42,310 bases of DNA. Source: a virus. Lineage: Duplodnaviria; Heunggongvirae; Uroviricota; Caudoviricetes. How positions within the stretch are numbered: position 1 is the stretch's first letter; each line of letters opens with the position of its first letter. The stretch is taken from IMG/VR virus record IMGVR_UViG_643692022_000008, one strand, 5' to 3'. A model generated the notes under the pieces. The model had not been told where the DNA came from. It ran no database searches and saw nothing but the letters and a program-made list of their open reading frames with translations. Shown one piece after another: positions 3,181-42,310 of the stretch. A program made the position numbers and the translations under genes.

Positions 3181-3736
3181 GAGACTCCCCGGCAAAAATA
3201 TCCACATCGATATGTGCTGTCGTCGCACCTGAAATATAAAAAGCGCCATCCATCCCGATATTCGCCAGAACATCTATTTTGCTCAGATGACTGCGCAGGT
3301 TTTTAGCCCGGTCAGTAAGCTGACGAATCTGGTGATACAGTGCATCGCTGACGCCCTGACTGCTGTGAACTTCAATCCGGAATGTGTAGGGTGCAGCCTG
3401 CGGTGAATCCTGCCACCACTCCACGACAGTGGTCGGCAGGTTTACCGCCCCCAGAGAACGCCTGACCGCACCCGCCGTTCCCCGGTGCTGGTGCACGTAA
3501 GCGGCGTCCTTAATCACCTGACGCTTTTGTGTCTCTGTCCAGCTGTCATCCCAAAAATCGACGGCATGTTCCCACGCAAGCCACGGTAAAAGATGTGCCG
3601 GGCAGCTGGCCGCATCTTTCACCTTACGCACCATGTTGGTATCCAGTGCGATGATGTGTTCTGTCGTCGCCTGCTCCTGCGCCCGTTCTTCATGAAATGC
3701 GCCCGGCGGCAGCAGGGAGCGAAATTTATCCGTCAT
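3173..3736 (-). CDS. Baseplate/tail protein gpI-like
   Basis: 187-aa ORF between gpJ-like and the tail fiber gene, in the P2 J-I-H order. Confidence 0.75.
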
Positions 3737-4646: not shown

Positions 4647-4983
4647 TTAGCGTTATTTCTCCTGTTCTGACGGGTAAGCCGTCTTCTTTTTTGATCCCTT
4701 CGATATCCAGAACACAGCCGGATTCGCCCGCCGGGAAGGTGACCATCACCCGCGTCACCTTTAAACGCGGCTCCCAGCGAGCCAGTGCAGTCGCTGAAGC
4801 GGCGATTATCCGCAGACGCGTCAGGTCATCCCGTGGGTTATCCAGCAACGAAAACAGTTCACTGCCATAGTCACGGATCAGCACACGACTCCCGACGGGC
4901 GTGGTCAGAATGTCCCGGACAGACTGGCGCAAATGCGCCACGCCAGACAGACGTTTGCCTGTCCGGCTGTTTACACCGTTCAT
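4630..4983 (-). CDS. Baseplate protein gpW (gp25-like)
   Basis: 117-aa ORF with a GPW/gp25-like sequence immediately upstream of gpJ. Confidence 0.8.
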   Translation of the reverse strand: MNGVNSRTGKRLSGVAHLRQSVRDILTTPVGSRVLIRDYGSELFSLLDNPRDDLTRLRIIAASATALARWEPRLKVTRVMVTFPAGESGCVLDIEGIKKEDGLPVRTGEITLNAQQL

Positions 4984-5023
4984 GATGATTTTCCGTTACA
5001 AAAGCGCCGGATGGCGCGATGGA

Positions 5024-6142
5024 TTAACCGAAGTAAGCCGGACCAGTTTTATCCTGTTGCTTCGATTTTTTTGCTGATTTTTGTGGTTTGTGAATATCCA
5101 CCACCAGATTGCAGGTATAACTGAATCCGGCAGCGGTCAGTGAAAAGACCAGCGACTCAACCACCCAGGCTCTGTCTTCCCGGGTACCAAATCCTGAGGT
5201 TGCCACCCCTGCTTCTGCCGTCAGGGGAATATGCTGTGGTCGGCAGGGGCCGGTGAGCGTCATTTTCTGCTCATTCCGTCTTGCCTGTGTTTTTCGTGCT
5301 TTCGCCTGCTTCTCTGCCGTATCCTTTTCTGACTGGGTATACGGGTTGGTCATTGCCGGTCCGTCATGTTCGACCGCTGCGGTTTTTGTCCTGCCATCCA
5401 CTTCATCGTAATAGCGAACCCCGATTTTCTCTTTTGCTTTACCCCCGCTTTCCGTGACTTTACCCGTGGAACTCCCCCGCTCACCTTCACTGTATGACCA
5501 CGTTGTCACGTCTGCAGGCGTAATGGTGATACTGTCAATCTGTTTACCGGAAACTGTCGCTGTCGCCCCCTGCGGCAGAAAAAGCCAGTAACCACCGGAA
5601 GGTTTACTCACCGCGTTGTAGATGCGGGCAAGCCGGGACAGCAGGTTAGCATCAGATTCAGCCACCTGGTCGATGTGGTTAATGTGAATATCTTTCAGCG
5701 CGGCAGCGACTCTGGGGATCAGGCCATTATCGGTGGCCACGGTTTTCACCACATCCTCCAGACGAATGTTATCCCAGCTTCGTGTTTTCTGACTGGTGAC
5801 GTCACCGGGTTGCTTCCGGGCATTCATGGGCGCTGCGGTGGCATAAATTTCAATGCGCCTCGGTGGCCCACTGCTGGCAACTCCGCTGACAACAAACCAG
5901 CCTTTATCGACAAGCTGCTCATTAAATCCCAGCGCAACCTGTAGTCGCGCCCCTCTGGGCGGAAGTGTCAGCGTTTCAGAAAGCAGGGTAATCTTCAGTT
6001 CATCGGCTCTGGCGGTCGCGCCACCGTAATCTGTCAGCGTCAGTTCAGAAAGGCATTGCTCAATTATGCGGGTAATATCTTTCCCTTCTGCCTTTATGCG
6101 GAATGCTGGCGCATATTCAGGAGTCATCGTCTGAGAAACCAT
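5024..6142 (-). CDS. Phage late control protein D (P2 gpD-like tail protein)
   Basis: Start taken at internal ATG 6140-6142, which abuts the gpX stop; TPEYAPAFRIKAEGKDITRIIE...LPPRGARLQVALG resembles the P2 gpD N-terminus. Confidence 0.75.
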   Translation of the reverse strand: MVSQTMTPEYAPAFRIKAEGKDITRIIEQCLSELTLTDYGGATARADELKITLLSETLTLPPRGARLQVALGFNEQLVDKGWFVVSGVASSGPPRRIEIYATAAPMNARKQPGDVTSQKTRSWDNIRLEDVVKTVATDNGLIPRVAAALKDIHINHIDQVAESDANLLSRLARIYNAVSKPSGGYWLFLPQGATATVSGKQIDSITITPADVTTWSYSEGERGSSTGKVTESGGKAKEKIGVRYYDEVDGRTKTAAVEHDGPAMTNPYTQSEKDTAEKQAKARKTQARRNEQKMTLTGPCRPQHIPLTAEAGVATSGFGTREDRAWVVESLVFSLTAAGFSYTCNLVVDIHKPQKSAKKSKQQDKTGPAYFG

Positions 6143-28187: not shown

Positions 28188-28307
28188 CGCAATTATGCTG
28201 TCACGACATAATCACTTCGCCTCCTGCTGCGGTGCTGCTGCGATCATGGCCTTCCATTGGTGGTCTGGGCTCCATAATCTACCGCCATCTTCACACTCTT
28301 CCTGCGC

Positions 28308-29018
28308 CTAATGGTACGCCTCACGCATTTCTGGAGTTGGCTCCTTAGGAACCAGCACCCAACCATCCGGAATCACCGGAGAGTTGCTGACGGGCGACTC
28401 GGAAATTTTTGGCGAAGAATCTAGGGCTGGCGCGGTCTGCATGGTGGTGGGCGACTCGGCTTTTTCGGCACCCTGAAGCATGGCGTCGCGGCATCCGTCA
28501 TACGCTTCTTTCATAGCATCACGCACCCATCCGACAGGTTTCTGCTCAGTCAACTCACACCATTTCTCGAATGTGGGCACAGATACCGGAACTGGCGGTG
28601 CTGCATAAAGCGCCTGACAACTCCAGCCAGACCAGTGAGCACCCTCCGCTCTCTCATCATCTTCAGGGCGAACAAGCGTGACTTCGCTCGGGTGTTTCCT
28701 GTGTGACCACAGCCAGGCTACGGTTTCGGCATTGGCTGGCTCTGGCGGGGCGGAGTAAAAATACTCATCCTCAATCCCATCAACGGGCTTTGAGAAGCCG
28801 ATAAAATCACCATAATGCCAAGGATAGGGGCCGTATGGCTCAGAGGTCACACGACGCCACCGGTGAATGGCAGGCTCCGCTTCGAGCGATGCCAGCGCGA
28901 TACGCAGTGCCGCCAGCGTGTTGCTGTCGCCTTCGTCCAGACCGAACGGGATTTCATCTCTGGCTGCTTCCATGTCGGCAATTTTCTGCTGCAGCCATTG
29001 TTTGGTAATAGTGCTCAT
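28308..29018 (-). CDS. Hypothetical phage protein
   Basis: 236-aa ORF in the early-right operon, overlapping the upstream gene. Confidence 0.55.
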   Translation of the reverse strand: MSTITKQWLQQKIADMEAARDEIPFGLDEGDSNTLAALRIALASLEAEPAIHRWRRVTSEPYGPYPWHYGDFIGFSKPVDGIEDEYFYSAPPEPANAETVAWLWSHRKHPSEVTLVRPEDDERAEGAHWSGWSCQALYAAPPVPVSVPTFEKWCELTEQKPVGWVRDAMKEAYDGCRDAMLQGAEKAESPTTMQTAPALDSSPKISESPVSNSPVIPDGWVLVPKEPTPEMREAYH

Positions 29019-29428
29019 GATGCCTCTCCTTTACCGGATGCGGCGGCGATCAGCTTCTGCGCCTGCTGAATGTCAGGATTGCCTGCAATCATCACTTCTG
29101 GCGCGTCACAGTCACCGCCAAGGTCAAGAATGCGCTCATGTCCGGTACGCAGGCAGGATTTGTATCCTGAAACCGTCTGCTTGAGCGATTCGGTCAGCAC
29201 AGCAATCCTCTGGTCTTTGGCTTCCAGCTCATCCAGCAGCGCCAGCACTGTGGCTGGGTTGGCTGCGGAGTTCAGCGCGTTCAAGGCAGTGATATCTGCA
29301 TCAAGCTGAGTTCCTTCTGCCAGTGAGATATCGAAAATGTCATCAGGCGGCATAACACTAAGGCGCTCATGCGCACCAACTGCTGCCTCAGCGATTTCAC
29401 GTAATGCGCGTTTGTCGATGTTGCTCAT
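29015..29428 (-). CDS. Hypothetical phage protein (MSNIDK paralog 1)
   Basis: 137-aa ORF; first 20 nt identical to the neighbouring gene's start. Confidence 0.55.
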   Translation of the reverse strand: MSNIDKRALREIAEAAVGAHERLSVMPPDDIFDISLAEGTQLDADITALNALNSAANPATVLALLDELEAKDQRIAVLTESLKQTVSGYKSCLRTGHERILDLGGDCDAPEVMIAGNPDIQQAQKLIAAASGKGEAS

Positions 29429-29655
29429 TCTTCATCCTCCAACTCAGATACGGCGTCCATTACATCTGAGCCGCGAATGGTTTCGAATGCCACGCAAGCC
29501 ATTTCAAAGCACAGGCGCTCATGCGGGTGCGGAGATTGCCAATACTTGAAGCCAGGACGATGCGAATAGCCCTGCATCGCATAAAACTCTCCGGCCAATT
29601 CAATGGCGGCATCCACCAGTTCACGGTTTGTCATTGGTTTGTCGATGTTGCTCAT
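29425..29655 (-). CDS. Hypothetical phage protein (MSNIDK paralog 2)
   Basis: 76-aa ORF beginning MSNIDKP; overlaps neighbours by 4 nt. Confidence 0.55.
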   Translation of the reverse strand: MSNIDKPMTNRELVDAAIELAGEFYAMQGYSHRPGFKYWQSPHPHERLCFEMACVAFETIRGSDVMDAVSELEDEE

Positions 29656-29852
29656 TGGGCGGCCTCCTGGATTAACTTTTCGAGAATGGCATCAAGGGCT
29701 TTCCGTTTTCCGATATACCCGCCACCAACCCACTCTCCACGAAGCAAGGCGTAATATTTCCCGTCGTCTTCGTGATACGGTCCTCGGATAGACCAGTCGG
29801 TTGTGATGGCGTCGATAGCCTTTTTAGTTTCTGCGAAATCCATCATGCTCAT
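29652..29852 (-). CDS. Hypothetical small phage protein
   Basis: Start taken at internal ATG (MSMMDF...) overlapping the Ren-like stop. Confidence 0.45.
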   Translation of the reverse strand: MSMMDFAETKKAIDAITTDWSIRGPYHEDDGKYYALLRGEWVGGGYIGKRKALDAILEKLIQEAAQ

Positions 29853-30142
29853 ACCCCTACCCTCCCCCAAACCATCAACACCCGCTTCATCGCGGCACTC
29901 TGGCGACACTCCTTAAAAATCAGGTTAGTGCTCACCTTTCCTTCCCGTTCTTCCCTGGTAGCGAATCTGTAATACACCGTTCGCCAGACCTTACCATCAA
30001 TGACCAAGATTCCTGCCCGCGCCATTTTAGCCGCAGCCTGATTTATGCTGGTTACTGTTGCGCCTGTTGCCGCAGCTACATCCGGCGCGCAGAAAGTCCG
30101 GTGCGTTTTCAGGTAGTGAAGAATTGCCTCTTTGCCTGTCAT
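29849..30142 (-). CDS. ren: Ren-like protein
   Basis: 97-aa ORF immediately downstream of P and overlapping its stop, the position and size of lambda ren; sequence identity is from memory only. Confidence 0.55.
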   Translation of the reverse strand: MTGKEAILHYLKTHRTFCAPDVAAATGATVTSINQAAAKMARAGILVIDGKVWRTVYYRFATREEREGKVSTNLIFKECRQSAAMKRVLMVWGRVGV

Positions 30143-30840
30143 ACACTGGCTCCTTTCAGTCCGAACTTAGCTTTGATTTCTGCGATCTTCGCCAGAGCCT
30201 GAGCCCGGTTAAGTGGTCTACCGCCCATGACAGGAAGTTGTTTTACTGGTTCAGGTATAGCCTCACCACGGTTAATTCGTGCGGTCATACAGGACAGTTC
30301 ATCGGCAGCCTTGCGCCGTAATTCCGCGTCAGTCAACGCATTGGCCCGCATGTTCTGATACAGGTTGGTAACCAGCCAGTAGTGCGCGTTTGATTTCCAC
30401 GGATAAGACTCCGCATCCGGATACAGGCCTCGCTTCCGGCAATACTCGTAAACCATATCAACCAGCTCGCTGACGTTTGGCAGTCCGGCGATAACGGATG
30501 CTTCTTCCCGGCACCATGCAACAAACTGCCCGGGTGATGGCAGGAATGGTCGATTCTGCCGACGGGCTACGCGCATTCCTGCGTTAACCTGTTCCATTGT
30601 GGTGATCCCGTTTTCCCGGAAAGCCAGAACCCACTGGCGGCGGATTTCGTTCAGTTCGTTCTGATCCCGGTTAGCCAGGCTCGCAGGGAAAGTTGCCAGT
30701 AACTGGCTGAACACACCGTTGATGATCTGCGCTACCTGCTGTACCTGCGGCTTTTCGTCGTACTGTTCCAGCATATTGTTGGCGATCCGGCGCATCTGCT
30801 CACGGTCAAAGTTAACCATCTGTGCGGCGATGTTTTTCAT
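30139..30840 (-). CDS. P: Replication protein P (DnaB helicase loader)
   Basis: 233-aa protein MKNIAAQMVNFDREQMRRIANNM... essentially matching lambda P as remembered. Confidence 0.95.
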   Translation of the reverse strand: MKNIAAQMVNFDREQMRRIANNMLEQYDEKPQVQQVAQIINGVFSQLLATFPASLANRDQNELNEIRRQWVLAFRENGITTMEQVNAGMRVARRQNRPFLPSPGQFVAWCREEASVIAGLPNVSELVDMVYEYCRKRGLYPDAESYPWKSNAHYWLVTNLYQNMRANALTDAELRRKAADELSCMTARINRGEAIPEPVKQLPVMGGRPLNRAQALAKIAEIKAKFGLKGASV

Positions 30841-31856
30841 AAATCCACCCCGTAAATCCAGTCAGTGTTCGTCAGGTCGAGTTTTGGTTTGCCGGCTGTC
30901 ACGCCAGCCTGTTGCTTGTTTCGGTTGATTTCGAGCTGGGTCCACTTGTCGCGGAGTTTGGCCGGACTCAGCACGTTACCGGACCAGAAGTTGTCCTGGC
31001 ATGCCCAGCGGAACAGTACACACATATCGCGGTGGTTACGCCCGTCACGCTCACGCATCAGGCGGATATCGTTAGCCCACCCTGCAAAATTCGGTTTTCT
31101 GGCTGATGGCGCGATGGTCTTCACCATGTCAAACATCCACTCTGCGGCGGTCAGGTCTTCTGCTGTCCCCCACTTGCTGCCGCTCTGAATCGCAGCATCC
31201 GGTTTCACCACAGGAAGGTCGTTTTCTGGCTGGTCAGAGTATTCGCCAGAATTCTCGGACGAATAAGGTTTTATATTGTCTTTTGTTAGTTTGTCTTTTG
31301 TGTTTACCTGATTCGGGTAAGTGCCTTTACCTGATTTGGGTAAACTTTTCTTACCTGATTCAGGTAAATTTACCTCTTTCAGGTAAACTTTATTTTTCTT
31401 ACCTGATTCGGGTAATGTTGACCATTCACTGACCACATTATTAATGCCTATATTCCGCCCGCTCTGAATAAAAATCCCACGCTTTACCAGAACACTTTTT
31501 GCAGCAGAACACTTGTGCGGCAATATCCCGGTCAACTCGGAAAGTTGCTCGTTGCTCACCCAATCCAGTTTTTTATTAAAGCCATATGTTTTGCGCATGA
31601 CAGCCAGGAAGACCAGAAGCTGGTGCTGTGTTAATCCGGCCAGCATTACAGCTTCCAGCAACTCATTTGCAATGCGCGTATAACCATCATCGAGATCTGC
31701 CACGCGCGGCTCCTTTTGTGCCGCATCCGGCACAGGAAAATTGAATATCTCAGCAGTGTTTGCCATAATTCCTCCCGCAATGAGTGTGTTACGATTTGCA
31801 CCTGAAAGTCGGTTCTGTTCCCGCAGACCGACTTTCGCCATTTTTAAACCTGTCAT
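30837..31856 (-). CDS. O: Replication initiator O (lambda O-like C-terminus, distinct N-terminal DNA-binding domain)
   Basis: 339-aa ORF overlapping P; contains the iteron array and AT-rich tract internally; C-terminal region resembles lambda O. Confidence 0.9.
   Translation of the reverse strand: MTGLKMAKVGLREQNRLSGANRNTLIAGGIMANTAEIFNFPVPDAAQKEPRVADLDDGYTRIANELLEAVMLAGLTQHQLLVFLAVMRKTYGFNKKLDWVSNEQLSELTGILPHKCSAAKSVLVKRGIFIQSGRNIGINNVVSEWSTLPESGKKNKVYLKEVNLPESGKKSLPKSGKGTYPNQVNTKDKLTKDNIKPYSSENSGEYSDQPENDLPVVKPDAAIQSGSKWGTAEDLTAAEWMFDMVKTIAPSARKPNFAGWANDIRLMRERDGRNHRDMCVLFRWACQDNFWSGNVLSPAKLRDKWTQLEINRNKQQAGVTAGKPKLDLTNTDWIYGVDL
31304..31415. repeat. Replication origin iterons inside the O gene
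   Basis: Five ~17-bp copies of TTACCTGATTCGGGTAA-like repeats at 31304-31320, 31327-31343, 31351-31367, 31369-31386 and 31399-31415, followed in the direction of O transcription by an AT-rich tract (31261-31300). Confidence 0.85.
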
Positions 31857-32398
31857 ATTGCCCCCAACATGGTGGTAACCATCGCCATCAATGGACCAGC
31901 CAGATCCGGGTCCACACGAAACATCGACACAATACCTTCACTCATCTCCTTCAGTTTCTGGTGGCGTGGTGCGTTGAGAATGACAGCCTGTTTTGCCTCA
32001 CTGAGTTCCTTTTCCATTTCAGCCAACCGAGTCATGAAGCTATCCTGCTCAACCAGGTAACCGCGATATTCCAGCGGTAGTACCGCCAGAATTGCCGGGG
32101 TCAGTTCACGCACGTTATTTCGGTATTTTTCAGAATCGAATTTGTTATCGAGGAAGCGGAACAGCTTCTGGCGTGCACGGCTGACATCATCAGGGAAATC
32201 GATGGTGCCGCCGCCCTGCTCCCGATACTCATTCACAATGAGTGCGGCAACAACATCCTGATTATCTGCAGCCGACCAGGCGCGGACGGCATCACGGATT
32301 TTTTCGTGGCCTGGCACCTGTTTTGTTTGAGAACGATTTATCACCGCAGTCGGGCTAAATCCGCTAGTCTGTTGGTATGTAAGTGGTTGCATAGTCAT
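31853..32398 (-). CDS. YdaT-like protein (cII-position regulator/toxin-like)
   Basis: 181-aa ORF between the cro-like gene and O; EYREQGGG...ELTPAILAVLP resembles Rac YdaT as remembered. Confidence 0.5.
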   Translation of the reverse strand: MTMQPLTYQQTSGFSPTAVINRSQTKQVPGHEKIRDAVRAWSAADNQDVVAALIVNEYREQGGGTIDFPDDVSRARQKLFRFLDNKFDSEKYRNNVRELTPAILAVLPLEYRGYLVEQDSFMTRLAEMEKELSEAKQAVILNAPRHQKLKEMSEGIVSMFRVDPDLAGPLMAMVTTMLGAI

Positions 32399-32422
32399 TG
32401 CCTTATCAGTTAACGCCGCAGT

Positions 32423-32650
32423 TTAGGCGGCAGAATTACTCGCGTTAAACAATGGTGCGAGGTCGGGACGAATATCTGCTGGTTTAATCTTTCCACCAGT
32501 GGCTGAGACAATTTTCATTACATAGCGGGCATCAATTCCGCCACCGTGTAGCCAACGCCAAACTGTGGGTTGGGCTACACCGCATAGATCTGCCAGTCGT
32601 TTTTGACTACCTGTAATACTGATTGCGAGTTGAATGGTTTGATTTGTCAT
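32423..32650 (-). CDS. Cro/YdaS-like HTH repressor
   Basis: Small HTH protein (RLADLCGVAQPTVWRW) transcribed divergently from cI; likely start at ATG 32648-32650. Confidence 0.75.
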   Translation of the reverse strand: MTNQTIQLAISITGSQKRLADLCGVAQPTVWRWLHGGGIDARYVMKIVSATGGKIKPADIRPDLAPLFNASNSAA

Positions 32651-32656
32651 TATCAA

Positions 32657-32760
32657 TTCCTATTGGTATTGCAATGAATGAATAATAGCAATGAGTATTA
32701 ACCCAAGCAATAGCAAAACGTGTTTTGACCATCAATACGCAAGCGTATAAATTAAAACTT
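32657..32760. promoter_or_regulatory. OR-like operator region with divergent pR and pRM candidates
   Basis: Repeated ATTGCAAT/ATAGCAAT/CAATAGCAA motifs; minus-strand promoter -35 at 32705-32710 and -10 TATTAT at 32682-32687; plus-strand promoter TTGACC at 32725-32730 with -10 ~32747-32752, giving an apparently leaderless cI start at 32761. Confidence 0.6.
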
Positions 32761-33453
32761 ATGAAAAAAGAAACTCTTGCTGATCGCTTAAATCTAGCGA
32801 TGGAACAATCTGGAATGTCTCAAGGCGCTCTTGCAAAGGCGTCTGGCGTAGCTCAACCCACAATCTGGAGACTGACAAGCGGCAACGCGCGCGGCTCAAC
32901 AAAAATTGTTGAAATAGCTAATGCATTGGGTGTTCGAACAGAATGGCTCTCTTCAGGCATAGGCCCGATGAGAAATGACGGTCAACAATCAGGGAAGCCT
33001 GCTGTCAGCCATTCCAAATACTTCAAAATTGACGTTCTTGATATAGAAGTCAGTGCCGGGCCGGGTGTAATCAACCGTGAGTTTGTAGAAGTTCTACGCT
33101 CGGTTGAATACTCGTTTGACGATGCTCGTCACATGTTCGATGGCAGGAAGGCGGAAAATATCCGCATCATTAACGTGCGTGGTGACAGCATGTCAGGAAC
33201 GATCGAACCAGGTGATCTGCTGTTCGTTGATATCACGGTTAAATCTTTCGACGGTGATGGTATCTATGCGTTTCTGTATGACGACACCGCCCATGTAAAA
33301 CGCCTGCAAATGATGAAGGATAAGCTGCTGGTTATCTCTGATAACAAGAGCTACTCACCGTGGGACCCGATCGAGAAAGACGAGATGAACCGCGTGTTCA
33401 TCTTCGGGAAAGTCATCGGGAGCATGCCGCAGACATATAGAAAGCATGGGTAG
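32761..33453 (+). CDS. cI: CI-type repressor (HTH-XRE + S24 LexA-like peptidase domain)
   Basis: N-terminal HTH (QGALAKASGVAQPTIWRL) and C-terminal S24 domain (GDSMSGTIEPGDLLFVD...KRL); start at ATG 32761. Confidence 0.85.
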   Translation: MKKETLADRLNLAMEQSGMSQGALAKASGVAQPTIWRLTSGNARGSTKIVEIANALGVRTEWLSSGIGPMRNDGQQSGKPAVSHSKYFKIDVLDIEVSAGPGVINREFVEVLRSVEYSFDDARHMFDGRKAENIRIINVRGDSMSGTIEPGDLLFVDITVKSFDGDGIYAFLYDDTAHVKRLQMMKDKLLVISDNKSYSPWDPIEKDEMNRVFIFGKVIGSMPQTYRKHG

Positions 33454-33582
33454 AAATCAGAACAAAATTATGCACTTCGCTTTTCAGCTTACTGTAGTAA
33501 GGCAATAAATTAGGCTTGACGTTAGCTATCAGGTGCACAACAATAATTGTTGAATAATAGGTTTTTTTAACTAGGTGATAAC

Positions 33583-34722
33583 ATGGCAGCGGTTGAATTT
33601 CAATTGTCTAGGAAGATGATTGATTGGATAGCAAATTCTCAAGGAGTTTCTATCGAAACTCTTGCTGACCAAGTCATGCCCAAAAAGATTAATAAATTTC
33701 TTAACGGAGTGGTAAGTAAATCCGCAGCAGAAAAACTGGCAAAAATTGGAGGAATCCCTTTCGGTTTTTTATTTCTTGAAACGCCACCAACTCCAGCCAA
33801 ACCCAAGATCCCTGACTTAAGGCAAGCTATAAATAGCCGTGAGTTAGGAAAAGATTTTTTTGATGTTTACTATGATATAGAATATAAACTTGAGTGGTAC
33901 AAAGACTATTTAAGAGAAAATGGTAATGATGATCCACTCGATTTTATTGGTAAATTTAAATTTAATAGAAAATTAAATTATAAGGTTGTTGCTACAGACA
34001 TAGCAAACACAATACATTTTGATATACAAAAAGAGATAAAAAATGTCACTTTTGAGAGCTATTTTTCTAAAGTGGCAAAACTAATAGAAGACACTGGCGT
34101 ATTAGTTTTCAAGAATGGTGTTGTGGGTAATAATAATAAAAGAAAACTTGACACGCGAGAGTTTCGTGGTTTCTGTATATCTGATAGCGTTGCTCCGATC
34201 ATTTTTGTAAATAGCTCGGACGCGTTATCTGCGCAGGTATTTACATTATTTCATGAGGTGGCTCATCTTTGGCTTGGAGTCGATGGAGTCTCTGGGTGGG
34301 ACACAGAAAAAAACATAGAATCTTTTTGTAATAAAGTTGCTGCTGAAATCTTAATGCCTGATAATCTCTTCAAATCTTTCTGGCTTAATGCATCCAGCGA
34401 TAATAATTATTATCGAGTAAAAGAGGTTTCTAAGTTATTTAAGGTTAGTGATTTCGCTTGTGCAATCAAAGCGTTACAATTAGATTTGATAGAAAGAAAC
34501 ACTTTGGAGATAATTAAAGATCAAGCTTACAATAAGCCCAAAAAAGAATCCAATGGTGGTTCTTTCTTTAACACATTACCTGTTCGTAACAGTCCAAAAC
34601 TTACGAATATAATAATTTCCAAAGCAATGTCTCAACAATTACCATTAAGGGAAGCAGGCGTACTGCTAAATGTAAAAGCAGATACAGTTGTTGAATTTTA
34701 TAAAAAACGAGAATCTCTATGA
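33583..34722 (+). CDS. HTH + ImmA/IrrE-family (DUF955/COG2856-like) HEXXH metallopeptidase
   Basis: 379-aa AT-rich ORF with AGGTGA RBS; N-terminal XRE-like HTH; HEVAH motif at 34251-34265; stop overlaps the next gene's start (ATGA at 34719-34722). Confidence 0.7.
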   Translation: MAAVEFQLSRKMIDWIANSQGVSIETLADQVMPKKINKFLNGVVSKSAAEKLAKIGGIPFGFLFLETPPTPAKPKIPDLRQAINSRELGKDFFDVYYDIEYKLEWYKDYLRENGNDDPLDFIGKFKFNRKLNYKVVATDIANTIHFDIQKEIKNVTFESYFSKVAKLIEDTGVLVFKNGVVGNNNKRKLDTREFRGFCISDSVAPIIFVNSSDALSAQVFTLFHEVAHLWLGVDGVSGWDTEKNIESFCNKVAAEILMPDNLFKSFWLNASSDNNYYRVKEVSKLFKVSDFACAIKALQLDLIERNTLEIIKDQAYNKPKKESNGGSFFNTLPVRNSPKLTNIIISKAMSQQLPLREAGVLLNVKADTVVEFYKKRESL

Positions 34723-35231
34723 TTCATAATGGAAAATTCTTAATTGATAGTAATGTCTTCATAGAGGCAAAAAACTTTGCATATAACTTCAATTATTGCA
34801 AAATATTTTGGGATTTTCTTCTCGCTTTACACATTAAAGGTCTGATTTATAGCATTAATGCTGTAAAAAAAGAACTATGTGCAAAAGATGATCCATTGTG
34901 TAAATGGATTAAAGAAGAGTTACCATCATCATTCTTCGAAGATGAGCATAGTTCAATAGAAAATTATGCAAAGTTAATAAATTGGTCAACTAAATTAGAT
35001 GTTACCGAAAAGGCAAAGTTTGATTTTGCAAGCCATGAAAAAGCAGATGCTTTTTTAATAGCCCATGCGATGACACATGGATATACTATTATTACCCATG
35101 AGAAACCATCCGGTGGCAAACCTAAAAAAAGAATAATGATCCCGGATGCTGCTGCTTCTCACGGCGTTAAGACATTAACACTATATGAATTTCTTCCAAG
35201 ATACGCTAGTCATAATTTTTCTTTGAAATAA
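34719..35231 (+). CDS. DUF4411 PIN-like putative nuclease
   Basis: 170-aa AT-rich ORF translationally coupled to the upstream peptidase; N-terminal FLIDSNVFIEA strand with conserved Asp typical of PIN-like folds. Confidence 0.65.
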   Translation: MIHNGKFLIDSNVFIEAKNFAYNFNYCKIFWDFLLALHIKGLIYSINAVKKELCAKDDPLCKWIKEELPSSFFEDEHSSIENYAKLINWSTKLDVTEKAKFDFASHEKADAFLIAHAMTHGYTIITHEKPSGGKPKKRIMIPDAAASHGVKTLTLYEFLPRYASHNFSLK

Positions 35232-35236
35232 AACGT

Positions 35237-35263
35237 CCCGGCCACCGTGCCGGGTTTTCTTTT
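35237..35263 (+). terminator. Rho-independent terminator after the two-gene module (tIMM-like)
   Basis: Hairpin cccggc/caccgt/gccggg (35237-35254) followed by ttttctttt. Confidence 0.7.
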
Positions 35264-35379
35264 GCCTCCCCTCATCACACACACCATTCAAAAAACCACC
35301 ACAACCCCGCTTCAGTTATCGCTATGCGATGCAAGTCACAAAATTAATTCTTTTTGCTATCAAATATTTAATATCAAAA

Positions 35380-35432
35380 CACATCTAGCAATAGCAATAA
35401 GTATTGATATCATCAATAGCAATAGCTATTAT
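35380..35432 (+). promoter_or_regulatory. OL-like operators with candidate pL promoter
   Basis: CAATAGCAA(T) motifs at 35386-35397 and 35414-35426 match the OR motif; TTGATA (35404-35409), 17-bp spacer, TATTAT (35427-35432) on the + strand facing gam-bet-exo. Confidence 0.55.
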
Positions 35433-35625
35433 CACCATGTCGCAACAACACAACGATACGGCAATCACCTGATTCACCGTTGCGATGACCGCTTAGATCC
35501 GCAGCTTGAATTTCAGCAGGCTCCGGGGAGTGCGAGGGGTGAAGCGGACGCGTGAACGTCGGTGTGACCAGCTGAAATCAACTCAACACTTCATACCTCA
35601 GTCGCTTCAACGAGGCGGCTTAGTT

Positions 35626-35916
35626 ATGACAACCGGCGGCCATCCACCGCCTGAATACGCGCAGAAGTCTTTATATGTTCAGCAGCCCAGCTTACGGGCA
35701 GGAGTTTTTATGGTTCATCAACATTACGGAACGCAGACCGTTAATCGCGGTGCGGTCATGCCAGGAATGCTGGTCAAACACAAAGATGGTACCTGGACTG
35801 CATCAGCTAATTTACGCGGACGGCTTTATCTGCATCGCGGCATCGAGCGCACTTATACCCGTGATTTGCTCGTGGAAGTTTTTCTCGACGGACGCGGTAA
35901 CGGCCTCAATCACTAA
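35626..35916 (+). CDS. Hypothetical early-left protein
   Basis: ORF between the OL-like region and gam; start uncertain (track ORF starts at 35506, internal ATG at 35626 has a GAGG RBS). Confidence 0.35.
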
Positions 35917-35991
35917 TCCCCTTTCCTGTTTTCCTAATCAGCCTGGCATTTCGCGGGCGATATTTTCACAGCCATTTTCAGGAGTTCAGCC

Positions 35992-37079: not shown

Positions 37080-37756
37080 CACCGGACATTATCCTGCAGC
37101 GTACCGGGATCGACGTGAGAGCTGTCGAACAGGGGGATGATGCATGGCACAAATTACGGCTCGGCGTCATCACAGCTTCAGAAGTTCATAACGTAATAGC
37201 AAAACCCCGATCCGGAAAGAAATGGCCTGATATGAAAATGTCCTACTTCCACACCCTGCTTGCCGAGGTTTGCACCGGTGTGGCTCCGGAAGTTAACGCT
37301 AAAGCACTGGCCTGGGGAAAACAGTACGAGAACGACGCCAGAGCCCTGTTTGAGTTCACTTCCGGCGTGAATGTTACTGAATCCCCGATCATCTATCGAG
37401 ACGAGACTATGCGTACCGCCTGCTCTCCCGATGGTTTATGCAGTGACGGCAATGGTCTTGAGCTGAAATGCCCGTTTACCTCCCGGGATTTCATGAAGTT
37501 CCGGCTCGGTGGTTTCGAGGCCATAAAGTCGGCTTATATGGCCCAGGTGCAGTACAGCATGTGGGTAACGCGAAAAAATGCCTGGTACTTTGCCAACTAT
37601 GACCCGCGTATGAAGCGTGAAGGCCTGCATTATGTCGTGGTTGAGCGGGATGAAAAGTACATGGCGAGTTTTGACGAAATGGTGCCGGAATTCATCGAAA
37701 AAATGGACGAGGCACTGGCTGAAATTGGTTTTGTATTTGGGGAGCAATGGCGATGA
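37076..37756 (+). CDS. exo: Exo (Red-alpha 5'-3' exonuclease)
   Basis: 226-aa protein [44 protein letters not shown]... matches lambda Exo. Confidence 0.95.
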
Positions 37757-37914
37757 AGCATCCTCACGATAATATCCGGGTAGGCGCGATCACTTTCGTC
37801 TACTCCGTTACAAAGCGAGGCTGGGTATTTCCCGGCCTTTCTGTTATCAGAAATCCACTGAAAGCACAGCGGCTGGCTGAGGAGATAAATAATAAACGGG
37901 GGCTGTATGACTGA
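37753..37914 (+). CDS. Small hypothetical protein (orf60a-like position)
   Basis: 53-codon [21 protein letters not shown]...; ATG overlaps the exo stop and its stop overlaps the methyltransferase start. Confidence 0.4.
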
Positions 37915-38464
37915 TTTCACCGGAAGCAATACTCCTGCCGAACATCGCGACAGCTGGCGCACACCACCAGAGATTTTTGCTGCGCTGAATGCAGAGTTCG
38001 ATTTTCAACTTGATGCTGCAGCCAACGAAAAAAACCGACTATGTCGGCTTTTTATCTCACAGGAGCAGAACACATTAACCACTTCATGGCCTGAAGCAAT
38101 GGGATATGCCTCTGGTTATGTCTGGTTGAATCCACCATACAGCAATATTTCCCCTTTTGTGAAAAAGGCAGCCACTGAAAACAAATTCAGTAGTGTGGGA
38201 TGTGTAATGTTATTGCCTGCTGACACATCTGTCGGATGGTTTCATGAAGCGATACAAACCGCCAGTGAGGTCAGATTCATCACGGCAGGACGACTGGCAT
38301 TTATTAACCCACTCACCGGGAAACCCGTCAGTGGAAATAATAAAGGCTCGATGCTCATTATCTGGCACCCATACCCCCGTACACACTGCCACTTTACGAC
38401 CGTTGATCGTGGCGAGTTGATGGCGTTCGGCTCAAGGATTCTTGCCCGTCGGGAGGCTGCATGA
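37907..38464 (+). CDS. DNA N6-adenine methyltransferase (phage Dam-like, NPPY motif)
   Basis: 185-aa ORF with DAAAN motif (FQLDAAANEKN) and catalytic NPPY (WLNPPYS). Confidence 0.8.
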   Translation: MTDFTGSNTPAEHRDSWRTPPEIFAALNAEFDFQLDAAANEKNRLCRLFISQEQNTLTTSWPEAMGYASGYVWLNPPYSNISPFVKKAATENKFSSVGCVMLLPADTSVGWFHEAIQTASEVRFITAGRLAFINPLTGKPVSGNNKGSMLIIWHPYPRTHCHFTTVDRGELMAFGSRILARREAA

Positions 38465-38544
38465 CAACCACGGAATGCATTTTTCTGGCAGCGGGCTTCA
38501 TATTCTGCGTGCTTATGCTTGCCGACATGGGGCTTGTTCAATGA
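38461..38544 (+). CDS. Putative 27-aa hydrophobic peptide (MTTTECIFLAAGFIFCVLMLADMGLVQ)
   Basis: ATG overlaps the methyltransferase stop (ATGA 38461-38464) and its stop overlaps the next ATG (38541-38544); single predicted TM helix. Not in the ORF track (<60 aa). Confidence 0.35.
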   Translation: MTTTECIFLAAGFIFCVLMLADMGLVQ

Positions 38545-38756
38545 CACCTCAGCAGGAAAACACCCTTCGCAGCATTGCCCGTCAGGCTAATTCTGAAATC
38601 AAAAAAGCCAGACAGCAGTGTCCGGATAAAAACGTCGATGACATTTGCCGTAGCGTACTGAAGAAGCACCGCGAAACAGTAACGATGATGGGATTCACAC
38701 CGACTCATTTAAGCCTGGCGATCGGCATGTTAAACGGCGTCTTTAAGGAACGGTGA
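38541..38756 (+). CDS. Hypothetical small phage protein
   Basis: 71-aa ORF starting at ATG 38541 (MTPQQENTLRSIARQ...), translationally coupled to the upstream peptide ORF. Confidence 0.5.
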   Translation: MTPQQENTLRSIARQANSEIKKARQQCPDKNVDDICRSVLKKHRETVTMMGFTPTHLSLAIGMLNGVFKER

Positions 38757-38854
38757 GCATGAAAAACAAAATCATCATGGAGCTACAGGCTCCTTTTTTA
38801 TTATTCGCATTCACCCTCAAGCGTATTAACCAACAATTCAGGGATTAATGAAAG

Positions 38855-39073
38855 ATGGCAGACATCATTGATTCAGCATCAGAAATTGAAGAATTACAGC
38901 GCAACACAGCAATAAAAATGCGCCGCCTGAACCACCAGGCTATATCTGCCACTCATTGTTGTGAGTGTGGCGATCCGATAGATGAACGAAGACGCCTGGC
39001 CGTTCAGGGTTGTCGGACTTGTGCAAGTTGCCAGGAGGAGATCGAACTTAAGAACAAACAATGGGGACTGTGA
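38855..39073 (+). CDS. TraR/DksA-family C4 zinc-finger protein
   Basis: 72-aa protein with CxxC...CxxC (CCECGDPI...CRTCASC). Confidence 0.75.
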   Translation: MADIIDSASEIEELQRNTAIKMRRLNHQAISATHCCECGDPIDERRRLAVQGCRTCASCQEEIELKNKQWGL

Positions 39074-39120
39074 TGGCCTCAAAGCAGCAAATTTCAACAT
39101 CGTCCAATTGAGGTGTAAAA

Positions 39121-39399
39121 ATGTTCAGAATCATTTTTCCTAACACCTGGTACGTCGATCACCACGGCACTCCCTGCAAAATCCTGCGTTCTACCCACAA
39201 CAAAGTTCACTACATCCGAAAAGGCAGAACATGTATCGCCAGCATGTTCCGATTTAATCATGACTTTGAACCTGTGAATAAAGCTGATGCAGATCGGATA
39301 GCAGAAGAGATCGAAACGGCAGAACACATTAAGAAGTTACGTGACATGCGTTCAAAAAGCAGAGGTAACCATGGAATCATACAGCCTCACACTCGATGA
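39121..39399 (+). CDS. Hypothetical phage protein
   Basis: 92-aa ORF upstream of xis. Confidence 0.45.
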   Translation: MFRIIFPNTWYVDHHGTPCKILRSTHNKVHYIRKGRTCIASMFRFNHDFEPVNKADADRIAEEIETAEHIKKLRDMRSKSRGNHGIIQPHTR

Positions 39400-39467
39400 G
39401 GCCTGCCAGCTTCTCAAGATATCCAGACCTACAGCAATCATGTCAATCCAATAAATGGAGACTCCAA

Positions 39468-39815
39468 GTGGAAGAAGAAATCTTCACTCGTGAAGAGGCT
39501 GCGTCGTATCTGAAGGTAGACAAAGGCACTATCACGCAGTGGATACGAAGTGGACGACTTCAAGCCGCAAAGATAAATCCAGATAAACCTAAAAGCCCAT
39601 ATCGCATTTGCAAGTCAGACTGCATTGCGGCGCTTAAGTCTGTGAGACACAATAGCGCGGTGAATGCGGTTGATGTGCAGGAGGTTAAAGCATGTCAATC
39701 AAACTGCGCGGTGGCACATGGCACTGCGATTTCGTCGCGCCAGATGGATCAAGAGTTAGACGCTCTCTTGAAACATCGGACAAAAGGCAAGCGCAAGAAC
39801 TTCACGATCGTCTGA
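39468..39815 (+). CDS. xis: Excisionase-like HTH protein (Xis)
   Basis: Probable GTG start at 39468 with GGAG RBS; HTH (TREEAASYLKVDKGTITQWIRSGRL); overlaps the integrase start, as xis and int overlap in lambda. The exact stop is uncertain. Confidence 0.6.
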   Translation: MEEEIFTREEAASYLKVDKGTITQWIRSGRLQAAKINPDKPKSPYRICKSDCIAALKSVRHNSAVNAVDVQEVKACQSNCAVAHGTAISSRQMDQELDALLKHRTKGKRKNFTIV

Positions 39816-40852
39816 AAGCAGAAGCGTGGAGAGTAAAAAATCTCGGGGAATCACCGAAAAAGCTATTCAAGGAAGCCTGCATACGGTGGCTGCGTGAGAA
39901 ATCGGATAAGAAGTCCATTGATGATGACAAGAGCATTATATCGTTCTGGATGTTGCACTTCAGAGAAACCATTCTCTCTGACATAACAACAGAAAAAATA
40001 ATGGAGGCGGTAGACGGGATGGAAAACCGCCGCCATCGCCTGAACTGGGAGATGAGCCGGGACAGGTGTTTGCGGCTTGGCAAGCCAGTGCCGGAGTATA
40101 AACCAAAGCTGGCAAGCAAAGGAACGAAGACGCGGCATCTGGCAATACTTCGCGCTATTCTCAATATGGCTGTTGAATGGGGATGGCTTGACAGGGCGCC
40201 CAAAATATCAACACCACGCGTTAAGAATGGACGAATCAGATGGCTTACAGAGGAGGAATCGAAGCGCCTGTTTGCAGAAATTGCTCCTCATTTCTTCCCT
40301 GTGGTCATGTTTGCAATCACGACAGGCCTTCGTCGTTCCAACGTTACAGACCTTGAGTGGTCACAGGTCGATCTGGATAAGAAAATGGCATGGATGCACC
40401 CTGATGAAACAAAAGCTGGCAATGCGATCGGAGTTCCTCTTAACGAAACCGCATGCCAGATATTAAGAAAACAGCAGGGGCTCCATAAGAGATGGGTATT
40501 TGTCCACACCAAACCTGCCTACCGAAGCGACGGAACAAAAACAGCAGCGGTAAGGAAGATGAGAACCGACAGCAACAAGGCATGGAAGGGAGCGTTAAAG
40601 CGGGCAGGCATTAGCAACTTCCGCTTCCATGACCTGAGGCATACCTGGGCAAGCTGGCTGGTTCAGTCCGGTGTCTCTCTTCTTGCACTTAAAGAGATGG
40701 GAGGATGGGAAACTCTCGAAATGGTTCAAAGATACGCCCACCTTTCAGCTGGGCATCTCACCGAGCACGCGAGCAAAATCGATGCGATTATAAGTCGCAA
40801 TGGCACAAATACGGCACAGGAGGAGAACGTAGTTTACTTAAATGCGAGGTAA
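39692..40852 (+). CDS. int: Tyrosine site-specific integrase
   Basis: 386-aa ORF ending 14 bp before the tRNA 3' end; C-terminal catalytic region [10 protein letters not shown]...RYAHL. Confidence 0.92.
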   Translation: MSIKLRGGTWHCDFVAPDGSRVRRSLETSDKRQAQELHDRLKAEAWRVKNLGESPKKLFKEACIRWLREKSDKKSIDDDKSIISFWMLHFRETILSDITTEKIMEAVDGMENRRHRLNWEMSRDRCLRLGKPVPEYKPKLASKGTKTRHLAILRAILNMAVEWGWLDRAPKISTPRVKNGRIRWLTEEESKRLFAEIAPHFFPVVMFAITTGLRRSNVTDLEWSQVDLDKKMAWMHPDETKAGNAIGVPLNETACQILRKQQGLHKRWVFVHTKPAYRSDGTKTAAVRKMRTDSNKAWKGALKRAGISNFRFHDLRHTWASWLVQSGVSLLALKEMGGWETLEMVQRYAHLSAGHLTEHASKIDAIISRNGTNTAQEENVVYLNAR

Positions 40853-40866
40853 CTTATTGATTTAGA

Positions 40867-40942
40867 TGGTGCCGATAATAGGAGTCGAACCTACGACCTT
40901 CGCATTACGAATGCGCTGCTCTACCAACTGAGCTATATCGGC
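40867..40942 (-). tRNA. thrW: tRNA-Thr (anticodon CGU), thrW-like; 3' 46 nt form the att core
   Basis: Reverse complement reads GCCGATATAGCTCAGTTGGTAGAGCAGCGCATTCGTAATGCGAAGGTCGTAGGTTCGACTCCTATTATCGGCACCA: cloverleaf with CGT anticodon and encoded CCA. Confidence 0.95.
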
Positions 40943-41056
40943 CCTGAAAGGACATGTTCACGAGCGTGAATCACGGTGGACAAGGTTAAAACTAACCGGG
41001 CGATGCGTCAATGGCCTTGTGAATCAAATGGCTACTTTTGCATCACCCGGTTTTAT

Positions 41057-42310
41057 TTATGCACGAATGGTGTAATCACCAATGCCGATCCACTTGTAGG
41101 TGGTCAGAGCTTCCAGGCCCATCGGGCCACGCGCGTGAAGTTTTTGTGTGCTTACCGCCACTTCCGCACCCAGTCCAAACTGGCCGCCGTCGGTAAAACG
41201 CGTAGAGGCGTTAACGTAAACAGCGGACGAATCCACTTCGTTAACAAAACGCTGGGCGTTGCGCATATCGCGGGTCAGGATCGCATCGGAGTGTTGTGTG
41301 CCGTGTTCACGAATATGGGCGATGGCATCGTCAAGATCGCTGACGATTTTGACGTTCAAATCTAATGACAGAAACTCATCGTCATACTCTTCCGCTTTAA
41401 CAGCCACCACCTTCGCGGGGCCTGTCTGCAACTGCGCCAGTGCACCTGCATCAGCGTGTAACGTCACGCCACTTTCCGCCATTTGCTTGCTTAATGCGGG
41501 CAGGAAGCTATCTGCGATGTTTTTATTTACCAGCAACGTTTCTACCGTATTACACGTGCTCGGGCGCTGAGTTTTCGCGTTGACAATCACTTTCAATGCT
41601 TCAGCGATCTCTGCACTTTCATCAACGTAAATATGGCATACGCCTATACCACCTGTGATTACCGGAATCGTCGACTGCTCGCGGCACAGTTTATGCAACC
41701 CAGCCCCGCCGCGTGGGATCAGCATGTCGATGTATTTATCCATACGCAGCAGTTCACTGACCAGCGCACGGTCAGGATTATCAATCGCCTGCACGGCACC
41801 CGCCGGTAAACCGCAGGAATTCAGAGCATCCTGAATCACCGCCACCGTTGCAGCGTTAGTGCGACAGGTTTCTTTGCCGCCGCGCAGGATCACTGCATTA
41901 CCGGTTTTCAGGCACAGTGAAGCAACATCAACCGTCACGTTCGGGCGCGCTTCATAAATTACACCAATCACCCCCAGCGGTACGCGACGGCGTTCCAGAC
42001 GCAGGCCGCTGTCCAGCACCCCGCCATCAATTACCTGCCCCACCGGATCAGCGAGGTTACACACCTGGCGCACATCATCGGCAATGCCTTTCAGCCGCGC
42101 GGGCGTCAACGCCAGACGATCAAGCATCGCGTCACTAAGACCATTGGCACGCGCGTCAGCAACATCCTGGGCGTTAGCATTGAGGATGCTTTCGCTTTGT
42201 GCTTCCAGTTCATCGGCGATTTTTTCCAGCACGCGATTTTTTTCGCGGCTGGAGAGTTGCGCTAATTTATACGAGGCTTGCTTTGCGGCAATGCCCATTT
42301 GTTCCAGCAT
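41057..42310 (-). CDS. proA: Gamma-glutamyl phosphate reductase ProA
   Basis: 417-aa [43 protein letters not shown]... matches E. coli ProA; start codon is at the window edge. Confidence 0.95.

Follow-up and report, generated by a model that had tools for sequence, protein, structure and literature searches.

What does a lambdoid prophage gain by carrying, directly behind its repressor gene, a pair of genes for a putative metallopeptidase and a putative nuclease? The pair, ORF1 and ORF2 (ORF, open reading frame), lies in the IMG/VR virus record IMGVR_UViG_643692022_000008 (Duplodnaviria; Heunggongvirae; Uroviricota; Caudoviricetes), and positions are given in that whole stretch of 42,310 nucleotides, which we call the window. 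An original prediction, made from the letters of the window and a list of its reading frames, had read the pair as an ImmA/IrrE metallopeptidase with a DUF4411 PIN-like protein at the place where lambda has rexA and rexB, and had proposed that the two genes exclude superinfecting phages. Our answer to what the pair is can be given with high confidence, since we consider it very probable that ORF1 and ORF2 are a toxin-antitoxin (TA) module of the type of VapB52-VapC52 from Mycobacterium tuberculosis. The answer to what it does is given with a good deal less assurance: the combined statement, that a VapBC52-type module acts in the lysogen as a phage exclusion system, is the one we favor on balance, and toward phage exclusion as the role of the cassette we lean only slightly.

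ORF2 matches Pfam DUF4411 (E = 1.6e-37), and its AlphaFold2 (AF2) model, with a predicted local distance difference test (pLDDT) score of 87, has top 17 fold matches in the PDB that are all VapC or other PIN-domain proteins. The residues D10, N12, E52, D58, D110, and E128 are invariant in 28 ORF2 homologs. ORF2 is most likely a PIN-fold endoribonuclease and, by analogy with a homolog described below, a tRNase.

ORF1 has its peptidase in the middle, where residues 169-291 match Pfam Peptidase_M78/IrrE, the ImmA/IrrE family (E = 1.2e-13), and PHROG 2439 matches it over the full length (3e-76). In PADLOC the best match of ORF1 is capP (1e-14), followed by weak matches to 12 RmrA models (E from 6e-8 to 8e-4), some of which extend over residues 20-314, and NCBIfam offers only a sub-threshold match to the spr1629 antitoxin. 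The AF2 model, at a mean pLDDT of 88.6, starts with a five-helix domain (residues 1-65, helices at 10-64), continues with an alpha/beta M78 peptidase core and a helical subdomain (about 130-317), and closes with a four-helix domain (about 328-379); nowhere in the N-terminal half is the pLDDT lower than in the linker at residues 71-90, where it is 65-71. The best solved structures found for the model by Foldseek are CapP 7T5T, IrrE 3DTI/3DTE, and PprI 8SLN, from a PDB library with entries to April 2026 and without 9VZY; VapB52 and VapC52, to which we turn now, were found instead by sequence search of PDB chains. These domain and structure results bear out both family assignments of the original prediction. 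Its N-terminal XRE-type helix-turn-helix (HTH) fares less well, as Pfam calls no HTH in ORF1, and the N-terminal domain is visible only as the five helices of the structure model and through homology to VapB52. The HEVAH zinc motif that it read is present, along with a glutamate further downstream, but at 34252-34266 and not at 34251-34265.

The combination of these two families has a history. In 2009, TA-like modules were predicted in which a COG2856-Xre fusion is linked to a PIN toxin, and Rv2515c of M. tuberculosis was the example given (PMC2701414); DUF4411 genes downstream of HTH-DUF955 fusions were described in 2017 (PMC5499597). Rv2515c/Rv2514c was validated as a TA pair in 2019, by toxicity and rescue only (PMC6504116), and NetFlax in 2023 had ImmA/Rosmer-type antitoxins partnering PIN-like toxins as well (PMC10440598). 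The complex of the two proteins, by then VapB52-VapC52 (Rv2515c-Rv2514c), was described as PDB 9VZY/9VZZ by Singh et al. in NAR, June 2026 (PMC13273310). According to that work, VapC52 is a tRNase of the PIN type with anticodon or variable loops as its cleavage sites, and VapB52 binds the toxin dimer in a ratio of 1:2, with a five-helix N-terminal domain (NTD) that is essential for toxin binding and a four-helix C-terminal domain (CTD) that occludes the toxin active site. Its middle domain is a zinc peptidase of the CapP/IrrE kind that a "cysteine switch", C229, keeps inactive, and single-stranded DNA (ssDNA) triggers self-cleavage of VapB52 at a conserved FR motif, which removes the NTD (PMC13273310). 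The system type is therefore not new, having been predicted twice, validated as a TA, and then characterized, and the possible novelty of the pairing that the original prediction entertained has to be given up, an outcome for which it had itself allowed. The novelty that is left is small and consists of a copy at the rex position of an enterobacterial prophage, the absence of the cysteine switch from most of the family, and two typical genomic homes.

The connection of ORF1-ORF2 to this complex is seen from both sides. An ORF1-family profile against PDB chains finds 9VZY_A, which is VapB52, at E = 7e-23 over profile positions 10-334, and an ORF2-family profile finds the VapC52 chains 9VZY_D and 9VZZ_A ("DUF4411 family protein") at 7e-14 and 4e-13. 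Direct BLASTP aligns ORF1 with VapB52 at 27% identity (E = 5e-14) and ORF2 with VapC52 at 26% identity (E = 3e-13), placing ORF2 D10 on the catalytic D6. The two systems have in common the antitoxin-first gene order and a DUF4411 PIN-fold toxin with conserved acidic residues, and ORF1 has the five-helix NTD, the M78 peptidase with its helical subdomain, and the four-helix CTD in the order of VapB52. In the alignments the VapB52 zinc site H216/H220/E245 falls on H224/H228/E246 of ORF1, and the D-F-R self-cleavage motif falls on D78-L79-R80 in the linker that follows the NTD, where cleavage by ORF1 is predicted. Toxicity and rescue, the 1:2 complex, tRNA cleavage, and ssDNA-triggered self-cleavage have been shown for the M. 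tuberculosis homolog only; they match the division of labor that the original prediction had guessed at, with the peptidase as sensor or antitoxin and the PIN protein as effector.

Which of these features belong to the family at large can be read from its alignments. In a 43-sequence ORF1 alignment, H224-E225-x-x-H228, E246, and C249 are invariant, and conservation extends to N-terminal blocks (W15, PFGFLFL, PP, D78, R80) and to C-terminal blocks. Residue counts were made on 122 distinct M78 partners of DUF4411, where H224, E225, H228, E246, C249, and R80 are again invariant (122/122), and residue 79 is F in 69, L in 38, and M in 10 (F/L/M in 117/122). With R80 invariant and position 79 mostly F, L, or M, the (F/L)R self-cleavage motif looks universal. 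Position 237 is Ser in 106 of the 122, and any Cys in that loop occurs in 1/122; since it is missing from nearly all of the sampled partners, the cysteine gate does not look like a general feature of the family.

The pairing itself was followed in 160 related loci, drawn in equal numbers (80 each) from species-representative genomes and IMG/VR, with ORFs called by a longest-ORF rule. About 154 of 168 DUF4411 matches have a full-length M78 gene as their direct upstream neighbor, with an overlap that is typically 1, 4, or 8 nt, and the exceptions are mostly contig ends, frameshifted DUF4411 genes, or artefacts of the longest-ORF rule. Hosts of the pair include Proteobacteria, Actinobacteria, Chloroflexi, Planctomycetes, Bacteroidetes, Spirochaetes, and others, and the DUF4411 family as a whole comes to 5,418 clusters at 50% identity (E<=1e-3), or 2,678 at E<=1e-10. 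Megablast of the window cassette against 50,697 sequenced phage genomes in INPHARED matched only the 34-nt terminator, and tblastn of ORF2 against the same set gave a single match, of 27% identity, so homologs are essentially absent there, and no isolated sequenced phage offers annotation or experiments to draw on.

The M78-DUF4411 family has two typical homes, one just behind prophage S24 repressor genes and the other inside type I restriction-modification (R-M) operons. Of 48 non-redundant IMG/VR loci, 22 have a co-oriented S24 repressor gene as the immediate upstream neighbor of the M78 gene, and these repressor-adjacent cassettes range in identity to the window from 99% down to 33%. Among 104 flanking proteins of chromosomal loci (L014-L091), type I R-M subunits are found as HsdS 13 times, HsdR 9 times, and HsdM 5 times; in the R-M-embedded pairs HsdS is upstream and HsdR downstream, which is a PrrC-like arrangement. 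As further observations on neighborhoods, a Klebsiella Rac-like prophage has the same layout of repressor, M78, and DUF4411, followed by recET; in another phage the M78-DUF4411 pair adjoins an arc/arc/ant immI-type region; and in Xenorhabdus vietnamensis (L012) a protein with a Tad2-like (Thoeris anti-defense 2) domain (8.8e-16), encoded at 1998-2756 on the minus strand of that locus, adjoins the pair.

In the window, the stop of ORF1 and the start of ORF2 overlap as ATGA (34719-34722), and the two genes are translationally coupled. The extent of the cassette around them was obtained by comparing the window with three loci: E. coli E89, where the site is empty, one with SIR2 as cargo, and one with a HipA-like kinase and DUF3037. 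Sequence common to all three compared loci reaches on the left to 33453, the stop codon of the repressor gene, which is the left edge of the cargo slot and the point where homology to other E. coli loci ends. On the right, the HipA-like locus and the empty site rejoin the window at the terminator hairpin (35236/7); the SIR2 locus, which brings a terminator and operators of its own, does so only at 35473. The hairpin has 6 bp, all GC, at 35237-35254, with TTTTCTTTTG directly 3', and an identical hairpin lies 3' of the empty site and of the HipA-like/DUF3037 cargo in other genomes. Because common sequence restarts at the hairpin in those loci, we count the terminator as prophage backbone and not as cassette, and as a shared terminator at the right edge of the slot it places the cargo within the repressor transcription unit. 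Over 33450-35250 the GC content is 0.30-0.38, compared with ~0.5 in both flanks. The original prediction had described two genes overlapping at this ATGA, lying between the end of cI at 33453 and a terminator followed by OL-like operators, AT-rich relative to their flanks and in the position of rexAB, and its picture of the layout is confirmed throughout, with the hairpin at 35237-35264, the repeats at 35389-35430, and the pair exactly in the variable cI-to-pL slot according to the BLAST boundaries and the contents of the slot in other genomes.

Those contents are diverse. A query running from the repressor gene to kil matches 2,742 of 5,426 complete E. coli genomes, of which 33 carry the window cassette, the full-length copies being at least 99% identical and most of the listed ones having both genes uninterrupted. 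Alternatives in the slot are SIR2 (PADLOC PDC-S25, about 1e-234; ThsA-like), Ser/Thr kinases of the PD-T4-6/mad6 type with a RuvC-like or PP2C partner, a HipA-like kinase with DUF3037 (PDC-M66A/B), an ASCH pair (PDC-M11A/B), DUF6932 (PDC-M63A), a BamE-like lipoprotein, and nothing at all. Most of the alternative cargo, for which the window was compared with loci L009-L011 and L173-L176, matches PADLOC models of known or candidate defense systems. The interval between cI and N, with rexAB and bstA, is called a known hotspot of mosaic diversity in the passage of PMC8585504 that cites Degnan 2007.

A promoter for the cassette had been predicted at ~33515-33560, and a consensus scan does place a motif there, at 33516-33544. 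Its TTGACG and AACAAT hexamers and their spacing are kept in other enterobacterial prophage cassettes with proteins 61-86% identical to those of the window, in which the spacer sequence has diverged; this conservation suggests that TTGACG-17-AACAAT is the functional promoter of the cassette. The inverted repeat CAACAATAATTGTTG, picked up by a palindrome script but not by find_repeats, overlaps its -10 hexamer, and repeats of the form ACAAT-N(1-3)-ATTGT are present in two related loci (L110, L105) and not in two others (L106, L001). As a candidate operator for autoregulation by ORF1 the repeat is kept as a weak one, because it is conserved only in part. Promoter-like sites within the cassette (e.g., 34486-34514 and 34586-34613, upstream of ORF2) number 12, versus 9.1 +/- 2.8 in shuffled sequence, and being no commoner than in shuffled sequence they are not read as a pLIT-like promoter. 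No terminator-like site was found between cI and ORF1 in a terminator scan of the window. Beyond the terminator, the OL-like repeats CAATAGCAATAAGTATT and CAATAGCAATAGCTATT (35389-35430) have the operator core ATAGCAAT in common with OR (32685), and the pL-like promoter precedes kil, gam, bet, and exo. The coordinates are collected in Table 1.

Table 1. Repressor gene, cargo cassette, and adjoining control signals of the window, with the residues of ORF1 discussed in the text
Feature	Position	Strand	Description or basis
cI-type prophage repressor	32725-33453	+	Pfam Peptidase_S24 1.5e-18, HTH_3 1.5e-6; RefSeq start 32761
Low-GC variable cargo cassette (promoter + ORF1 + ORF2)	33454-35236	+	BLAST versus empty and other-cargo sites; GC
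Candidate sigma-70 promoter of cassette	33516-33544	+	TTGACG (33516-33521), 17 nt, AACAAT (33539-33544); consensus scan
Perfect 7-1-7 inverted repeat CAACAATAATTGTTG	33538-33552	.	Palindrome script; overlaps -10 hexamer
ORF1	33583-34722	+	379 aa; predicted VapB52-like antitoxin/sensor
D78-L79-R80 codons of ORF1	33814-33822	+	Equivalent of VapB52 'FR' self-cleavage motif, NTD-peptidase linker
Zinc site of ORF1	34252-34320	+	H224-E225-V-A-H228 (34252-34266), E246 (34318-34320)
Ser237 of ORF1	34291-34293	+	Aligned with VapB52 cysteine-switch Cys229
ORF2	34719-35231	+	170 aa; predicted DUF4411 PIN-like toxin (VapC52-like)
Intrinsic terminator of repressor operon	35237-35264	+	CCCGGCCACCGTGCCGGG then TTTTCTTTTG
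OL-like operator repeats + pL-like promoter	35389-35432	+	Direct repeats; promoter TTGATA-17-TATTAT, 35404-35432

How an exclusion system of this kind might work can be set out by analogy with VapB52. In the lysogen the pair would be expressed from the conserved promoter of the cassette itself, probably together with read-through from the repressor promoter, since no terminator separates the cassette from cI. ORF1 would hold the ORF2 dimer inactive, the five-helix NTD gripping the toxin and the four-helix CTD covering its active site. Most likely, ssDNA that arises when a superinfecting phage replicates or recombines, or when DNA is damaged, would be the signal that turns on the M78 peptidase of ORF1; the protein would then cut its own linker at (L/F)R80 and lose the toxin-binding domain. 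The freed PIN toxin would cut tRNAs, translation would stop, and the infection would abort. For the trigger, the target, and phage exclusion in E. coli, it is the mycobacterial homolog and the setting of the cassette from which we infer.

Several points weigh against this account, and they are of different kinds. The homology to VapBC52 is distant (26-27% identity), and the CTD is matched only by its predicted four-helix architecture, as it is not alignable by sequence. Ser237 of ORF1 stands in place of the cysteine-switch C229, so that, with the gating cysteine of VapB52 and CapP replaced, the mechanism of activation may differ. Scanning ORF2 with PADLOC (E<=0.1) and NCBIfam returned no match, so that the defense-database comparison proposed in the original prediction recognizes ORF1, through capP and weakly through RmrA, and has no defense model for its partner. 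M. smegmatis was protected from phage D29 by over-expression of VapC52 alone and not by VapB52 and VapC52 expressed together (PMC13273310), and that failure leaves defense by an intact system of the VapBC52 family a conjecture. SOS induction of the prophage would set off an ssDNA trigger as well, and the account as it stands offers the phage no way to escape self-harm. Finally, two E. coli genomes, ATCC 43886 (L008; locus 3130-5555) and E2528-C1, have IS1 in the M78 gene near codon 189; in L008 the M78 gene is reduced to an N-terminal ORF of 189 aa and a peptidase fragment of 205 aa, and DUF4411 is intact. The toxin can thus be tolerated when its partner is incomplete, at least if it is possibly silent; the IS1 copies do not count clearly against toxicity, because the predicted toxin-binding domain survives in the N-terminal fragment and IS1 may have a polar effect on ORF2.

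An idea that would take up two of these points, and that we regard as speculative and rather unlikely, is that the cassette is an abortive-infection system with a sensor gated by something other than a cysteine switch, and that its placement behind RecA/ssDNA-responsive S24 repressors is perhaps functional. Two paired sensors of DNA damage or ssDNA could then let the tRNase tell a superinfecting phage from the prophage's own induction, or could time host shut-off in the course of induction. Were this idea borne out, it would be the first demonstration of phage defense by an intact system of the VapBC52 family, and in a tractable E. coli/lambdoid setting.

We weigh phage exclusion against four other roles for the cassette. 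The pair could be a selfish addiction or stabilization module, penalizing loss of the immunity region or the prophage by post-segregational killing and having no specific anti-phage role. A bona fide TA architecture fits this, as do the homologs found on at least 26 plasmids, many of them conjugative, and the record of the M. tuberculosis pair, whose TA validation showed only toxicity and rescue and which gave no phage protection when intact. We nevertheless think it improbable, since the alternative cargo of the same slot consists overwhelmingly of defense candidates, relatives are embedded in type I R-M operons, the IS1-split ORF1 with intact ORF2 is tolerated in two genomes, and an ssDNA-sensing protease domain is superfluous for simple addiction.

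A second possibility shares the mechanism proposed above and differs in who benefits: as a brake under stress or DNA damage, the cassette would free the tRNase in response to ssDNA or some other stress, slow growth, and help the lysogen independently of phage. In M. tuberculosis the VapBC52 knockout has stress and virulence phenotypes, and a role in copper stress and intracellular survival was proposed (PMC13273310); in addition, the M78 relatives IrrE/PprI and CapP are DNA-damage sensors. But the window copy is prophage cargo in a defense-type hotspot, the sequence indicates no particular stress, and arrest triggered by damage would come at the same time as induction of the prophage through the neighboring S24 repressor; we think a stress brake unlikely.

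That the cassette is decaying or silent cargo, a horizontally acquired remnant no longer expressed or functional in the prophage, is very unlikely. Related copies do decay, both through IS1 in ORF1 and on the toxin side, where DUF4411 is split by a frameshift or stop beside an intact M78 gene in three loci (L103, L119, and L015), and the cassette is confined to 33/5426 complete E. coli genomes. In the window, however, both ORFs are full length with all catalytic residues kept, the Shine-Dalgarno is intact, and so is the conserved promoter, and the near-identical E. coli copies are for the most part uninterrupted.

ImmA cleaves ImmR in ICEBs1, and an anti-repressor role, in which ORF1 would cleave the neighboring prophage repressor for a lysis-lysogeny switch with ORF2 as an accessory, has in its favor that ORF1 is of the ImmA/IrrE family and that its gene directly follows a repressor gene in 22/48 phage-borne loci, but it is scarcely credible given that the repressor next to it carries an S24 autoprotease domain, complete with the customary Ala-Gly site and Ser/Lys motifs, and is found in many genomes whose slot is empty or filled with other cargo, that ORF1 is tied to DUF4411 in about 154/168 loci including R-M operons and plasmids, and that VapB52, its closest characterized relative, cleaves itself and not its partner. 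An ImmR/ImmA pair is rejected for the window on the same grounds, the Peptidase_S24 of the repressor, the other partners of that repressor, and the covariation of ORF1 with DUF4411.

The rest of the prophage was also looked over. Divergent from the repressor (31853-32656, minus strand) are genes for a YdaS-like protein in the Cro position and a YdaT-like protein in the cII position; Pfam names these families 'toxins', and in the window both hold standard lambdoid regulatory positions. To the right, some 270 nt (35433-35710) separate the pL-like promoter and operators from kil (35710-35916), with gam, bet, and exo directly after, and an N-like antiterminator gene is neither annotated in that interval in the matching RefSeq record nor evident there. 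Just after exo, at 37907-38464, is a phage Dam-family N6-adenine methyltransferase (Pfam Dam, 8.8e-57), and next come a TraR/DksA zinc-finger protein and a DUF4222 protein. The end of the prophage (39396-42310) has an excisionase-like HTH_17 protein at 39396-39815, the integrase at 39692-40852, and tRNA-Thr(cgt) at 40867-40942 on the minus strand, followed by a host gene of the aldehyde dehydrogenase family; with the integrase beside these, the element is integrated at a tRNA-Thr gene and has kept its integrase. Far from the cassette, 951-1149 on the minus strand is a full-length match to the Rfam IS009 RNA family (210.8 bits, E=2e-51). From 32725 to 35950 the window is 100% identical to E. 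coli JNEC-KY177 (NZ_AP045173.1), and it differs from that record in the nin region (28300-30900) and the early-left/int region (37700-42310), so the identity is limited to the immunity region, and the immunity module is shared between mosaic prophages.

The sole characterized member of this widespread family is mycobacterial, and the cassette is a convenient enterobacterial, prophage-borne representative. It makes three things testable in E. coli: protection from phage by the intact pair under its native promoter, activation of the protease where the cysteine-switch residue is Ser, and survival of the prophage's own SOS induction despite an ssDNA-triggered toxin. The copy in the window also adds one type of cargo to the catalogue of the cI-pL hotspot.

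Among known systems, CapP is the best match of the ORF1 peptidase core both in PADLOC and by structure, and is a DNA-sensing M78 protease. CapH and CapP reportedly regulate CBASS (Lau et al. 2022), where CapP cleaves a separate repressor, CapH, and so switches on CBASS transcription. The M78 protein of the window is instead partnered with a toxin, and its characterized relative VapB52 cleaves itself. A CapH/CapP-CBASS locus was considered and set aside, with no CapH gene, CD-NTase, or effector gene among the neighbors, which are the S24 repressor on one side and the terminator, OL/pL, kil, gam, bet, and exo on the other.

The anticodon nucleases PrrC and RloC resemble the family in two ways, in that its members are often inserted between hsdS and hsdR, as prrC is, and in that the homologous toxin VapC52 cuts tRNA anticodon loops. 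PrrC consists of an ABC-ATPase and a nuclease domain, with latency imposed by the R-M enzyme. The proteins are unrelated to ours, latency here would come from a dedicated protease-antitoxin, and the window copy is not linked to R-M.

On the lambda map rexA-rexB lie downstream of cI in the variable cI-to-pL interval, and these abortive-infection genes, like Salmonella BTP1 bstA, share with ORF1-ORF2 a place as cargo between the repressor gene and pL/OL, and the same expression logic. Position is all that is shared, as there is no similarity of sequence or domains, and Pfam, PHROG, and PADLOC searches of ORF1 and ORF2 give the M78 and DUF4411 families and nothing of RexA or RexB. RexAB is a sensor with a membrane channel and BstA is a single protein, whereas the window pair is a predicted protease-gated PIN nuclease TA.

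RosmerTA (RmrT/RmrA; Millman et al. 2022; Ernits et al. 2023, PMC10440598) comprises phage-defense TA systems with an antitoxin of HTH and ImmA-like zinc peptidase and a swappable toxin, a plan that ORF1-ORF2 may share. The one Rosmer toxin tested, from phage Kita, is a membrane-depolarizing protein and not a nuclease (PMC10440598). We do not assign the pair to that family, as ORF2 matches no RmrT or other PADLOC model, the RmrA matches of ORF1 are weak with CapP better, and the PADLOC rules would not call the locus Rosmer. VapBC52 is then the system to which the pair comes closest, and the two differ in their genomic setting: VapBC52 is a chromosomal locus of an actinobacterium, and the window pair is carried by an enterobacterial lambdoid prophage, as cargo of its repressor operon.

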